Assembly: GCA_963835385.1 (NCBI GenBank)
Contig: CAWIFK010000002.1
Location: 255,572-319,571, forward strand
Reading direction: 5' to 3'
DNA length: 64,000 nucleotides
Source: an uncultured Actinomycetota bacterium
GTDB taxonomy: Bacteria; Actinomycetota; Actinomycetes; Propionibacteriales; Nocardioidaceae
Position numbers and translations under genes: made by a program
In this document: piece by piece, positions 25,150 through 29,600 of the stretch
Position numbering within the stretch: position 1 is the stretch's first letter
Layout of the letters: every line of letters starts with the position of its first letter
Notes under the pieces: model-generated
Told to the model about the DNA's origin: nothing
The model's input: only the letters and a program-made list of their open reading frames with translations
Databases searched by the model: none

Positions 25150-25539
25150 CTACTCCAGCGAGCTGGCGTCGTCGGGTACGTCGACGGCGTGCGCGCGCAA
25201 CGCCTCGAGCGGCACCACCTCCAGCGCCCGCTCGTTCGTGGCCGCCAGCACGACCGGGGCGGGCACCCCGTCCTCGTACGCCTGCACCCACCGCAGGGCG
25301 ACCACGCACCAGCGGTCGCCGGGCCGCAGGCCGCGGAAGCCGTACGCAGGGAGGGGGGTGACCAGGTCGTTGCCGACCGACCGCTGGTGCTCGAGGAACT
25401 CGGCGGTCATCACCGCGCAGACGGCGTGCAGCCCGACGTCCTCCGGTCCGCAGCTGCACGAGCCGTCGCGGTAGAAGCCGGTGACCGGGTCGGTGCCGCA
25501 CGGCTGCAGGTCGCCGCCCAGGACGTTGCGCTCGCTCAC
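25150..25539 (-). CDS. DUF2237 family protein
   Basis: 'NVLGGDLQPC..DPVTGFYRDGSC....D.G.HAVCAVMT.EFL...GNDL.TP.....F.GL.PGDRWC....RW'. Leaderless -10 CATCCT. Confidence 0.9.
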   Translation of the reverse strand: MSERNVLGGDLQPCGTDPVTGFYRDGSCSCGPEDVGLHAVCAVMTAEFLEHQRSVGNDLVTPLPAYGFRGLRPGDRWCVVALRWVQAYEDGVPAPVVLAATNERALEVVPLEALRAHAVDVPDDASSLE

Positions 25540-25624
25540 CCGGCCAGGATGTCACCCGGGCCCGCTCAGGGTCACGCGGGCGTCAGTCCGTGCGGCGCAC
25601 CACCACCCAGAAGGCGGCCGCGCC

Positions 25625-26356
25625 TCAGCCGGAGCCGGACATCCTGCGCCGGGGCGGGGTCGTCGACTGCAGCGCGACGAGCCGCAGGAAGATCCAGACC
25701 ATCCCGACCTGCCACGCGATGGCGAGCACCACCAGCAGCGGCCACCAGTGTCCGGCGAGCCCGTCGATGGCCTCGCGGGGCAGCACCGCCAACGAGTACG
25801 ACATGCCCACGAACAGGATGCCGAGCCAGGCCGCAGCCGAGCGGTAGCCGCGGCTCCAGTCACGCGGTGAGGTGATGCCCAGCGCCTCGAGGTCGTCGGG
25901 CGGGTGGTCGCGCAGCATCTTGCGCACGGAGGGGTAGACCTGCACACCCGGGTACTTCAGCGCCAGCATCCGCCTGGCCCGTCTCGCGGCGGGGGGCGTC
26001 CAGCGGACGGCGGGCGGCAGCGTCACCGCCTCGATCCGTGCCGCGCCGGCGCGGAAGCCGCGGTCACCGAGGATGCACCGGCCCTGGATCGCCACGACGG
26101 CGCTCACCGGGCCGATCGCCACGGTCGCGCTACCGGGCAGGTACCACCCGTAGAGGCCACACCGGCAGTCGGCCGAGGGAGCCGCGTGCTCGCCGCCGGT
26201 CGCACATCGTGCGCGCTCCAGGTGGCCGTCCCACGGACCGTACTCGGCGTGGACCAGCGGGTAGAGCCCGTCCGAGCGCAGGTAGAACTGCCGGTATCCC
26301 CGCAGCTCGCCCGGGACCAGCGCCGGGCCGACGGGTGTCTCGGTGGGCTCGCTCAT
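25625..26356 (-). CDS. Hypothetical protein with C-x5-H-x6-CxC motif and two C-terminal TM helices
   Basis: 'ARCATGGEHAAPSADCRCGLYGW', 'VVAIQGRCILGDRGFRAGAARIEAV'; hydrophobic 'AWLGILFVGMSYSLAVL' and 'WWPLLVVLAIAWQVGMVWIFL'. Confidence 0.8.
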   Translation of the reverse strand: MSEPTETPVGPALVPGELRGYRQFYLRSDGLYPLVHAEYGPWDGHLERARCATGGEHAAPSADCRCGLYGWYLPGSATVAIGPVSAVVAIQGRCILGDRGFRAGAARIEAVTLPPAVRWTPPAARRARRMLALKYPGVQVYPSVRKMLRDHPPDDLEALGITSPRDWSRGYRSAAAWLGILFVGMSYSLAVLPREAIDGLAGHWWPLLVVLAIAWQVGMVWIFLRLVALQSTTPPRRRMSGSG

Positions 26357-26466
26357 GTGCGTTCGGGGACCGGCGCCGGCTCACGGTCCGGCTCGGGCTC
26401 CCTGAGGGGCTCCACCGGAAGTGGCTCGAACTCCACCTCGCGTCGCTCGATGCCGATGTTCCCCAT
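26353..26466 (-). CDS. Unannotated 37-aa Glu/Pro-rich small protein MGNIGIERREVEFEPLPVEPLREPEPDREPAPVPERT
   Basis: Manual translation. Strong RBS GGGAGGTG 4-11 nt before ATG. Its stop overlaps the next start (ATGA). Confidence 0.75.
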   Translation of the reverse strand: MGNIGIERREVEFEPLPVEPLREPEPDREPAPVPERT

Positions 26467-26654
26467 GCCGCACCTCCCGCTGAGCCGTTGCGACGTCCCC
26501 TGGAGCGACCGCGCCCCCAGGCGGACGCCAACCCTCCACCCATCGTGCGACTGCGGACGGCGGTTGTCGAGAGGTCCCCGAGCAGTAGTTGCGACGACTC
26601 ACGGCGGTGCCCGGCCGCGACGAGTCCCGGGAGCGCAACGGGTGCGGCCGGTTC

Positions 26655-26676
26655 TGTCCGTGCCTCGTGACATCCT
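26655..26676 (+). promoter_or_regulatory. RecA-NDp/PafBC-like promoter of recCBD (leaderless)
   Basis: TGTCCG-tgcctcgtga-CAtccT (TGTCnGTG-N8-hexamer). GTG start 7 nt downstream. Confidence 0.6.
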
Positions 26677-26683
26677 GCGTCGC

Positions 26684-29600
26684 GTGACGTTGCAGACCCA
26701 TCGGGCAGAGCGGACCGACCTCCTCGCGGACGGTCTGGCCGCACTGCTGGCGAGCCCGCTGGCGGACCCGTTCGCCGAGGAGGTCGTCGTGGTGCCGGCG
26801 CGCGGGGTGGAGCGCTGGCTGACGCAACGGCTCTCGCACCGGTTGGGCGCCGGGGTCCGTGGCGGCGACGGGGTCTGCGCGGGCGTGCGTTTCCTGAGCC
26901 CGCACTCGCTGGTGGCGATGCTGCTGGGCAAGGACGGCGACGACCCGTGGGACCCCGACCGTCTGGTGTGGCCGCTCCTCGACGTCATCGACGACTCGCT
27001 CGGCGAGCAGTGGTGCGCCACGCTCGCGGCCCACCTGGGGCACGGCGTCGCCGGCGAGGAGGGAGTGCTGCGGCGGAGTCGTCGCTACTCCGTCGCCCGG
27101 CGGCTGGCGGGGCTGTTCGCGGGGTACGCCGTCCAGCGGCCCGCCCTGGTGGCGGACTGGCGCCAGGGGCGCGACGCCGACGGCACCGGCACCGCTCTCG
27201 ACGAGGACCTGCTCTGGCAGCCGGAGCTGTGGCGCCGTCTGGTGCCGCGCGTCGACGGGACGCCGCCCGACGTGCGGCACGCGCAGACGCTCGAGCGGCT
27301 GCGCACGGGCGGGGACGCACTCGACCTGCCGCCCCGGCTGTCGTTGTTCGGGCACACCCGGCTGCCGGTCACCGAGGTGGAGCTGCTCGGGGCGCTCGGC
27401 GAGCTGCGGGACGTGCACCTGTGGCTGCCGCAGGCGTCCGGCGTCCTGTGGGACGAGCTGGCCGGCGTGTCGGCTGCCGGGCCGGTGCCGCGCGCAGAGG
27501 ACACCTCCGTCCGGTGCGTCGGCCACCCGTTGCTGGGGTCGCTGGGGCGGGACGCTCGCGAGCTGCAGCGCACGCTGGCGGTGGCGCCGGCGGGCTCGGA
27601 GCAGGCCGAGCCGCCGGACCCCCGGGGCCGGCCGGACCCCTCCGGCGGCGACGCCGCGGAGCCGCCGGGGCCGGGCTCGTCGCTGCTGGCGTGGCTGCAG
27701 GACGACCTGCGGGCCAACGCGGAGCCGGACGCCGGCACCCGCGCCGGTCGGGTGCACCGGCCCGCGGACCGGTCGGTGCAGGTGCACGCCTGCCACGGCA
27801 CGACCCGCCAGGTCGACGTACTCCGCGAGGTGCTGGTCGGGCTGCTCGAGGACGACCCGACGCTCGAACCGCGCGACATCCTGGTGATGTGCCCGGACAT
27901 CGAGGCGTACGCGCCGCTGATCCAGGCCGGGTTCGGGCTCGCCGACCTGCCCGGCGCGCACGAGGGCCACCCGGGACACCGGCTGCGCCTGCGGCTGGCC
28001 GACCGTGCCCTGTCCAGCACCAACCCGCTGCTGGCGGCCGCTGCCACCCTGGCCGAGCTCGCCGGAGGCCGCGTCACCGCGACGGAGGTGCTCGACCTCG
28101 CCTCCGCGGAGCCGGTCCGGCGACGGTTCGCCTTCACCGACGACGACCTGGCCCAGCTCGCCCTGTGGGTCGAGCAGTCCGCCATCCGGTGGGGGCTCGA
28201 CGCCCGGCACCGCGGGTCCTACGGGCTGGGCCTCGCGGACAACACCTGGGAGGCGGGGCTCTCGCGGATCCTGCTCGGTGTGGCGATGGCGGAGGACGAG
28301 CACCGCTACGTCGAGAGCGCCCTGCCCGTCGACGACGTGTCCAGCAACGACATCGACCTGGTGGGCCGGTTCACCGAGTACGTCGAGCGCCTGCGCGGGT
28401 TCGTCGAGGCGGCCACCCGGGCCGGCACCATCGGCCAGTGGGTCGCGGCACTGTCGAGCGGCGTGGAGCAGCTGACCGCCGTGGCGCCGCGCGAGGCCTG
28501 GCAGCAGGCGCAGTTCGACCGCGAGCTGGCGCGGATCCACGCATCCGCCACCGGCCAGCACGGCGACCGCACGCCCCTGCTGCTGGCCGACGTGCGGCAC
28601 CTGCTGGCGCACCGGCTCGGTGGCCGGCCGACGCGGGCCAACTTCCGCACCGGCACGCTCACCGTCTGCACGATGGTCCCGATGCGGTCCGTACCTCACC
28701 GGGTGGTCTGCCTGCTCGGCCTCGACGACGGGGTCTTCCCGCGCACCGGCTCCCTCGACGGCGACGACGCGCTCGCCCGCCGCCCGATGACCGGCGAGCG
28801 CGACGTCCGCAGCGAGGACCGGCAGCTGTTCCTCGACGCGATCCTGGCGGCCAAGGAGACGCTGGTGATCACCTACACCGGGGCCAACGAGCACACCGGG
28901 GCGCAGCGACCCCCGGCGGTGCCGCTCGGCGAGCTGCTCGACGGGCTGGACCGGACGGCGGCCGGACCGGTGCGCGACCAGGTGCTGGTCAAGCACCCGC
29001 TGCAGCCCTTCGACGTGCGCAACCTCGTCCCCGGCGACCTGGTGGCCGACCGGCCGTTCAGCTTCGACGCCGCCGCGCTCGCGGGGGCGGAGGCCGCCCG
29101 CCGGACCCGCAGGCCGGTGACCACGCTGGTGCCCGAGCCGTTGCCAGCGACGTCCGCCCAGGACGTGGCCCTGGCCGACCTGCAGGCGTTCCTGGCCCAC
29201 CCCGTCCGGGCGTTCCTGCGCTCGCGGCTCGACGTCACCGCGCCGCTGGAGGCCGAGGAGACCCGCGACGCCATCCCGATCACCCTCGACGGGCTGGCGA
29301 AGTGGTCGATCGGCGACCGGCTCCTGGAGGAGATCCTGGCCGGCGTGCGGCCCGACGCGGGCATGCGTGCCGAGCGGCTGCGCGGGGGCCTGCCGCCCGG
29401 CGCGATCGGCGCCCGCACGCTCACCGAGGTCGACGCCGAGCTGCGGCCCCTGGTCCGGCACGCCCTGTCGCTGCGTCAGGGGGAGCCCCGCACCCTCGAC
29501 GTGGACGTCGACCTCGGCCGCGGCCGCCGGCTGACCGGCACGGTCACCTCGGTGTTCGGCAACCGGCTGGTCACCGTGACCTACTCCCGGCTGGCCGCCA

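Follow-up and report, generated by a model that had tools for sequence, protein, structure and literature searches.

On the reverse strand of a 64,000-nucleotide stretch of DNA from an uncultured member of the Nocardioidaceae (Actinomycetota; assembly GCA_963835385.1, contig CAWIFK010000002.1, positions 255,572 to 319,571 of the forward strand), a very small gene precedes and overlaps a larger one. This whole stretch is called the window below, and positions are counted from its first letter. The first gene is an open reading frame (ORF) of 37 amino acids at 26353..26466 (-) which, on direct reading of the sequence, specifies the acidic peptide MGNIGIERREVEFEPLPVEPLREPEPDREPAPVPERT, with a net charge of about -5. 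Its ATG is preceded, across 4 nt (CGGC), by the Shine-Dalgarno sequence GGGAGGTG (26471..26478, -), likewise read directly. The second gene, here called the partner, is an ORF of 243 amino acids at 25625..26356 (-), delineated from its reading frame, its homologues and an AlphaFold2 (AF2) model; no ribosome-binding site of its own is evident for its start codon. The TGA stop codon of the peptide and the ATG of the partner are interlocked in the sequence ATGA (26353..26356, -), with three bases in common. The ORF, its ribosome-binding site, the coupling, the partner and a set of motifs within it had been singled out in a first-pass annotation of the window, and all of them are present where that annotation had placed them.

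Alignment and the codon table delimit a conserved core in the peptide, residues 2-16 (GNIGIERREVEFEPL; 26419..26463, -), followed by a variable tail rich in proline, alanine and glutamate, residues 17-37 (26356..26418, -), as judged from its composition and alignment. The partner begins with a predicted cytoplasmic head domain of approximately residues 1-165 (25862..26356, -), beta-rich and basic with a pI of about 10, whose extent follows from the span matched by homologues and from the AF2 model. Its sequence includes the motifs RGYRQF (residues 19-24), C51-x5-H57-x6-C64-x-C66 and GDRGFRAGAARIE. The cysteine-histidine motif is a putative metal (Zn) knuckle (26159..26206, -), conserved in the family and lying in a loop of the model. 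A long beta-hairpin with the turn motif G-x-x-G-F-R-A (G100, R102) occupies residues 84-112 (26021..26107, -) in both the alignments and the model. The protein ends in two hydrophobic helices forming a predicted C-terminal transmembrane (TM) hairpin, residues 168-230 (25667..25855, -), which is supported by the AF2 helices, by conservation within the clade and by hydrophobic windows in homologues.

Comparison between genomes shows that the 37-residue ORF is a real gene under purifying selection at the protein level. A search of related genomes for the partner led to loci with the same peptide upstream. A one-genome-per-species scan provided 139 loci with relatives, the best 80 of which were examined for an upstream peptide. 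The core consensus [G/A]-[D/N/E/Q]-I-G-x-x-R-R-E-[V/I]-x-[F/C]-E-P-[L/V/M] was found directly 5' of the partner in 78 of these 80 genome loci. The two exceptions are a contig that begins at the partner gene and a second paralogue whose peptide lies 1.1 kb upstream, before the first paralogue. The loci span the Nocardioidaceae, Geodermatophilus, Frankiales, Jiangellales, two halophilic Pseudonocardiales and a separate class, the Acidimicrobiia. Alignment reveals that G5 and P15 are invariant and that G2, I4, R8, R9, E10, F13 and E14 are kept in at least 90% of the rows, the charged residues R8, R9, E10 and E14 being conserved across the two classes. In 76 distinct 45-nt core sequences the invariant glycine and proline positions show all four codons, and arginine is written with five codons at R7 and six at R8. 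The ratio of nonsynonymous to synonymous polymorphism (pN/pS) is 0.31 in the peptide frame versus 1.04 and 2.66 in the remaining two forward frames; with one flanking codon included on each side, it is 0.37 in frame versus 0.49-2.7 in the other five frames. This codon use and the low in-frame pN/pS imply that conservation acts on the protein rather than on an RNA or DNA motif.

The two halves of the peptide evolve in different ways. Hydrophobic positions alternate along the 15-residue core, a pattern suited to a beta-strand. The tails of 72 peptides are 19-57 amino acids long (median 24) and consist of 34% proline, 20% alanine and 12% glutamate; their sequence is not conserved, no tail position is invariant in the alignment, PP motifs occur in 26 of the 72 and cysteine in none. 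The last residue, set by the overlap with the partner start codon, varies among T, S, R, A, Q and P. The beta-strand-like N-terminal half and Glu/Pro tail described in the first-pass annotation agree with this alignment. The median charge of the peptides is -5 (pI 4.4) versus +8 (pI 9.9) for the head domains. GGAGG-like sites lie 5' of most orthologous peptides. The peptide had also been called hidden, which holds for about half of the checked orthologues, missing from the protein collection, but not for others, which have already been gene-called as 'hypothetical protein' (for example WP_182481499.1). At the Geodermatophilus loci (for example L068:3780-3968 and L070) the peptide frame stays open for about 22 codons further upstream, to an ATG that follows GGAGGAG (MHTxTAP...), and the peptide may there reach about 60 amino acids, the conserved core lying inside it; in addition, E-C-E-P replaces E-F-E-P in most cores of this genus. 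Weak peptide-like matches in two other genomes, G290 (in the linker of an NAD synthetase) and G098, were judged to be due to chance.

The same comparisons show that peptide and partner constitute a real, co-inherited and coupled two-gene unit. A 4-nt overlap (ATGA or GTGA) is found at 65 of 77 junctions (84%), the remainder having gaps of 3-34 nt. The Frankiaceae carry a very divergent subfamily of the partner, a short soluble protein of 158-229 amino acids, and in the one-genome-per-species scan a recognisable variant of the peptide, MGDIGKPERIVEDEPISWP..., lies upstream in 19 of 19 loci. The 4-nt overlap is present at 16 of these, and masked bases occur at one of the other three. When 301 genomes sampled evenly across the class were searched, the partner profile matched in 13, nine of them from one family. 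The five peptide-profile matches better than E=1e-3 in this sample all adjoin a partner gene, even where that gene is highly divergent, and orphan peptides were absent from the matches checked. Moreover, the peptide accompanies the head domain whatever the type of C-terminus: TM hairpin, the short soluble form of Frankia, or the basic tails of phages. The module is near-universal and syntenic in the Frankiaceae and Geodermatophilus.

Two loci have unusual arrangements. In a prophage-like contig of a metagenome-assembled genome of the Mycobacteriales (L093:2835-4750) a single peptide gene (VGDIGPVRREITFEPLPDE...) precedes two partner paralogues, with an ATGA overlap at its junction. The first paralogue is soluble (237 amino acids); the second comes after an open frame of about 100 codons, carries a basic '...GPQS...' tail at its end and lacks a separate peptide. 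Locus L091 (681-1529) is the only one of the 77 in which peptide and partner share one reading frame, separated by a TAG stop and a 3-nt gap. Its contig may be mis-binned, since it is labelled Burkholderiales, yet its genes resemble the Acidimicrobiia copies.

The pair is also found in phages. The peptide is present in four phage or prophage contigs: L014 (30 kb, viral), L107 (47 kb), L108, which is a prophage with integrase and cI/Cro-type repressor genes, and L109 (38 kb). The upstream peptide that the first-pass annotation had proposed to seek across genomes and phages is therefore found in the 78 of 80 genome loci, the 19 of 19 Frankiaceae loci and these four contigs. In phages the pair is located among small early genes near genes for WhiB, ParB and a methylase, and temperate phages have partner homologues in their early regions; homologues also occur in BRock and related Streptomyces phages. 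In the 47-kb phage-like contig (L107:5529-6810) three overlapping genes encode the peptide (36 amino acids), an unrelated protein of 122 amino acids, for which no family match was found, and the partner. In a 105-kb viral contig (L100:3302-4642) the partner homologue is broken by a frameshift and adjoins an open frame that by eye resembles a DNA cytosine-5 methyltransferase; its N-terminal extension contains a run of residues faintly reminiscent of the peptide (IPVRREVEV...VEFEDP). A very divergent partner-like gene (MLDAKTSGWRVFALDG...CTCGIRA...) lies directly 3' of an upstream open frame in a prophage copy (L145; G213:C129:9553-9750, -), where neither an upstream peptide nor the G-F-R-A hairpin motif was found.

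The partner belongs to a large family. It has 389 close homologues, and an exhaustive HMMER search recovered 964 cluster representatives (50% identity) at E<=0.001, of which 143 reach E<=1e-10. In most of the distant homologues the best matched stretch lies within approximately residues 10-160. C64, C66, G67 and G92 are invariant among 132 diverse members, at least 90% of which also retain R22, W42, A49, C51, H57, P60, Y69, G97, G100, R102 and P152. The AF2 model is of good quality (mean pLDDT 86.7, pTM 0.76). It contains a five-stranded sheet made of strands 18-27, 30-33, 68-71, 84-96 and 100-112, the last two forming the long hairpin, followed by helices 121-134 and 144-150 and then by the TM hairpin helices 168-191 and 194-230. 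A structural metal site fits the placement of the Cys-His-Cys-x-Cys set in a loop of the model. With two of its residues invariant and the other two, C51 and H57, nearly so, the metal site proposed at first reading is plausible; this Cys3-His site probably binds a metal, Zn being the most likely and a 3Cys-1His Fe-S cluster the alternative.

The part that follows the head domain is far more varied. Among the 126 best-scoring non-fragment cluster representatives, 48 have predicted TM segments after the domain, 30 have a basic tail and 48 are otherwise soluble. Since the C-termini differ and the domain is conserved, the head domain is the functional unit and the C-terminus a swappable localisation module. 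In the 15-sequence alignment of the clade to which the window partner belongs, W204, W205, W215, Q216 and R225 are found in at least 90% of the rows and Q230 is invariant, so that the TM hairpin may be more than an anchor. The basic tail of phage-type relatives (for example P0140, P0142, P0195 and P0272) has roughly the form A-L-E-x-R-[RK]-x-R-[NGH]-T-G-P-x-x-[RK]-R. No publication on this motif was found; binding of nucleic acid and localisation are its possible roles.

Neither gene could be attached to a described family. Searches of Pfam, NCBIfam, PHROGs and PADLOC gave no significant match for the peptide, the partner or its distant or long relatives, and a PDB fold search with the partner model gave none. 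In the BFVD collection of predicted viral structures, the clear Foldseek matches are homologues alone (BRock, E 1.5e-11). Weaker ones to RIIB/DUF7666 proteins cover about 100 aligned columns (probability 0.7-0.98, E 0.02-0.2, rmsd 4-9 A), with low TM-scores of 0.26-0.29 of the query. At the sequence level, Pfam DUF7666 is weakly touched by two of 132 relatives (best E 0.078), the window partner has no match to it at E<=1, and a search of the genome with the PF24703 profile returned nothing at E<=10. Homology with RIIB found no support: hhalign against a 26-sequence RIIB profile gave a probability of 0.16, hhalign with a single RIIB sequence likewise gave no support, and T4 RIIB itself matched helix-turn-helix families alone in the Pfam copy at E<=0.01. 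A resemblance of fold to RIIB/DUF7666 is possible, without support from sequence. Rejected was transglutaminase- or papain-like Cys-His catalysis, suggested by the motif C-x-x-[FY]-[AG], which lies in a predicted strand and not at the N-terminus of a helix; no fold match accompanied it. Nothing describing the peptide, the partner or the pair was found in the literature, nor anything pertinent on DUF7666. As no family, structure or publication was found for either gene, the pair is most aptly regarded as a two-gene system of a new and uncharacterised kind, in agreement with the undescribed system announced in the first-pass annotation, and one whose genes are inherited together, nearly always in coupled form, by two classes of Actinomycetota as well as by phages.

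In the window the pair is located between recC (26684 onward, +) and the gene of a DUF2237 protein (25150-25539, -; Pfam E 1.8e-50). In a congener (G004, locus L102) recC and the DUF2237 gene are divergent neighbours approximately 110 nt apart and the site is empty. Homology between the two genomes ends at 26684 and restarts at 25546, which leaves in the window a cassette of 1,137 nt (25547..26683, -) without counterpart in the congener. Because the congener has these genes as direct divergent neighbours, the gap between them is a point of insertion or deletion. The pair is present in six of 24 sampled congeners, in other contexts where the flanks could be compared, and no neighbouring gene is conserved beyond the genus at the loci compared. 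The pair is therefore a mobile or frequently lost cassette, and its position beside recCBD and the DUF2237 gene, the former remarked upon at first reading, is incidental.

The cassette seems to carry its own expression signals. A putative sigma-A-type promoter (26542..26570, -) comprises a -35 hexamer TCGACA (26570..26565), a 17-nt spacer and a -10 hexamer CACGAT (26547..26542), and the 5' untranslated region (UTR) from this promoter would be about 70 nt. A -10-like block, GAC[G/C]ATGG, is kept 5' of the peptide in an alignment of Nocardioidaceae and other loci and presumably represents the -10 element. A generic scan for E. coli-type promoters and for terminators gave no match. At two loci (L021 and L041) the -10-like block (AACGATGG and CACGATGG) is merely 3-6 nt 5' of the peptide ATG; given this proximity, transcripts there may be leaderless. 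At other loci the 5' UTRs reach approximately 110 nt.

How might the pair work? The reading that we favour, at somewhat below an even chance, makes the acidic peptide a trans-acting companion or inhibitor of the basic head domain, present at approximately 1:1, within a module related to phages. The peptide and then the partner would be synthesised from a single promoter and a single strong ribosome-binding site, and ribosomes finishing the peptide would probably continue to the partner, so that the two products would be made in roughly equal amounts; such coupling would fix their stoichiometry. The beta-rich head domain of about 160 amino acids would be held together by the Cys3-His metal site and, in the clade of the window protein, the two-helix C-terminal hairpin would tether it, and the complex with it, at the inner face of the membrane. 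Docked on the head domain, the peptide core would act as an antitoxin-like inhibitor or an obligate subunit, and the tail would remain disordered. Docking is proposed because the genes are coupled, because the peptide follows the head domain whatever its C-terminus and because the charges are complementary. The docked core could control how far a surface of conserved Arg, Tyr and Trp can reach an anionic target, for which nucleic acid, membrane and protein are candidates. The retention of the peptide in the 47-kb phage-like contig, where a gene intervenes, and at the Mycobacteriales locus, where one peptide serves two paralogues, points to an ability to act at a distance.

Several observations weigh against this trans-acting peptide. 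In Streptomyces phage GiJojo the homologue is not preceded by a peptide-like ORF, and no upstream peptide was seen in the viral contig L099 or at the divergent prophage copy in G213. The vertical-looking, near-universal presence of the module in the Frankiaceae and Geodermatophilus is unusual for toxin-antitoxin or defence cassettes. Copies that are so widespread and syntenic would have a cellular role there rather than being selfish addiction modules. The partner was matched neither in PADLOC nor to a known toxin fold. Binding of the peptide to the head, harm caused by the partner and binding of nucleic acid by the partner are all conjectural. In a single-chain AF2 co-fold of the in-frame locus L091, with its TAG read as Gln and no alignment rows covering the peptide, the partner was well modelled, but the core of the peptide came out with low confidence (pLDDT 38-55) and the tail at about 71. 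No natural fusion of peptide and partner exists among the representatives; the copy in the 105-kb viral contig looked fused but is frameshifted.

The absence of an evident Shine-Dalgarno sequence for the partner and the prevalence of the 4-nt overlap could indicate a leader peptide acting in cis. The small ORF would then serve mainly to bring ribosomes to the partner start and to adjust how many arrive, with the nascent chain modulating termination and re-initiation, the conserved core at the tunnel exit and the Pro-rich stretch inside the tunnel; even the shortest tails, of 19 residues, would approximately span the ribosomal exit tunnel. We consider this unlikely. In known arrest peptides conservation lies beside the peptidyl-transferase centre, whereas here the conserved residues are far from the stop codon, the tail sequence is variable and PP occurs in only a minority of tails. 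Moreover, the core is kept despite the 122-residue ORF that intervenes in the phage-like contig and despite the gaps at 12 of 77 loci, and its charged residues persist across two classes. A comparably small share of probability goes to a peptide that targets a third party, a host or phage protein, with the partner as a co-expressed factor having a target of its own. Acidic, Pro-rich, disordered small proteins are common early effectors of phages; the peptide resembles this type, the module lies among phage early genes, and the co-fold, made with no peptide rows in the alignment, gave no confident docking. However, the strict pairing with very divergent partner subfamilies, the lack of orphans among the peptide matches checked and the fixed stoichiometry implied by translational coupling speak against this reading.

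Two further explanations, both raised in the first-pass annotation, lose most of their ground. That the peptide is a precursor of a ribosomally synthesised and post-translationally modified peptide (RiPP), its N-terminal core being the leader recognised by the partner and its variable tail the part modified and released, would account for a conserved leader joined to a variable C-terminal part beside a Cys/His protein. It is nevertheless very unlikely: the tail is of low complexity (Pro/Ala/Glu), with neither cysteine nor an invariant position in 72 examples, the peptide has no secretion signal, and the neighbourhood holds no conserved gene for a modifying enzyme, protease, exporter or immunity. 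Searches of Pfam, NCBIfam and PDB folds revealed no RiPP recognition element (RRE) or known RiPP-enzyme fold, and the module occurs in the early regions of phages. The idea that the partner is an enzyme like the ADP-ribosyltransferases (ARTs), with the peptide as substrate or inhibitor, is scarcely credible. It stems from a resemblance of motifs only, a conserved Arg on the first strand and the G-F-R-A motif. Of the residues that mark the R-S-E clade of these enzymes, namely an Arg, Ser-x-Ser and the catalytic Glu of Q/E-x-E, the Arg has a conserved counterpart in R22. No Glu that could be catalytic is conserved across the family, E109 being lost in L008 and E104 giving way to Gly or Ala in the clade of the window protein; only close relatives keep the Ser of 'PGS'; and the ART fold, a split beta-sandwich that binds NAD+, was not matched in the PDB search, which returned neither an ART nor any other fold.

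Beyond the trans-acting peptide itself, it is possible, although we would sooner doubt it than not, that the pair is the founding example of a new two-component class in which a 15-residue motif on a proline-rich tether switches on or off a metal-stabilised domain without counterpart among solved structures. Such a class would have arisen in actinophages, been domesticated as a core factor in the Frankiaceae and Geodermatophilaceae and become a mobile, membrane-anchored cassette in the Nocardioidaceae. Its activity would be new and without kinship to any known toxin-antitoxin, defence or RiPP family; a sensor or effector tethered to the membrane or to DNA, at work in development or in the conflict of phage and host, is one example.

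The present value of the pair is that of a well-defined, testable system rather than of a mechanism. At 50% identity the superfamily counts 964 clusters, distributed over two classes of Actinomycetota and the phages of these bacteria, without an entry in Pfam, NCBIfam, PHROGs or PADLOC and without a solved structure. Its strictly co-inherited mini-protein is missed about half the time by gene callers, and small proteins that control a larger partner are in general under-annotated. More than 100 natural peptide-partner pairs provide material for studying a short linear motif presumably bound by a domain with no match among solved structures. Near-universal presence in the nitrogen-fixing symbiont Frankia and in Geodermatophilus points to a cellular role, and location in the early regions of temperate phages and in a mobile cassette points to a role in the interplay of phage and host. 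In either case a function would be given to a large block of actinobacterial and actinophage genes now called 'hypothetical'.

Comparison with known systems reveals partial likenesses. Pup, like the peptide, is a small, acidic, disordered actinobacterial protein that works via a partner; however, no C-terminal Gly-Gly-Gln/Glu is conserved here and the partner is not ligase-like. The ZAS anti-sigma factors (RsrA, RslA, ChrR) offer another parallel: in actinobacteria, a cytoplasmic domain with a Cys/His metal site is held at the membrane by helices at its C-terminal end. Their motif is H-x3-C-x2-C in a helical fold, whereas that of the partner is C-x5-H-x6-C-x-C in a beta-rich one; moreover, the partner has no Pfam anti-sigma match and no sigma-factor gene recurs beside the loci outside the genus. 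The peptide shares with RiPP precursors a conserved N-terminal and a hypervariable C-terminal part and an adjoining protein that contains Cys and His. Viral DUF7666 and T4-type RIIB proteins, which are phage proteins too, give weak Foldseek alignments with the head domain over about 100 residues that may reflect a similar fold. RIIB of the T4 type is a membrane-associated protector against prophage exclusion and, unlike the partner, has no upstream peptide.

The type II toxin-antitoxin systems, such as RelBE and Phd-Doc, differ in that the peptide has no DNA-binding domain: no helix-turn-helix (HTH), ribbon-helix-helix (RHH) or AbrB domain was detected, and none is possible in a 15-residue core with a tail. 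The partner, for its part, belongs to no toxin family in PADLOC, Pfam or NCBIfam, and the module is near-universal and syntenic in the Frankiaceae and Geodermatophilus. In spite of this, the organisation is much the same. A small, acidic and largely disordered first product is coupled through 4 nt to a larger, basic second product, in a self-contained two-gene cassette with its own promoter-like site and a single Shine-Dalgarno sequence upstream of the peptide. Like these systems, the cassette is patchily distributed within the genus, occupies varied genomic sites and also travels on temperate phages.

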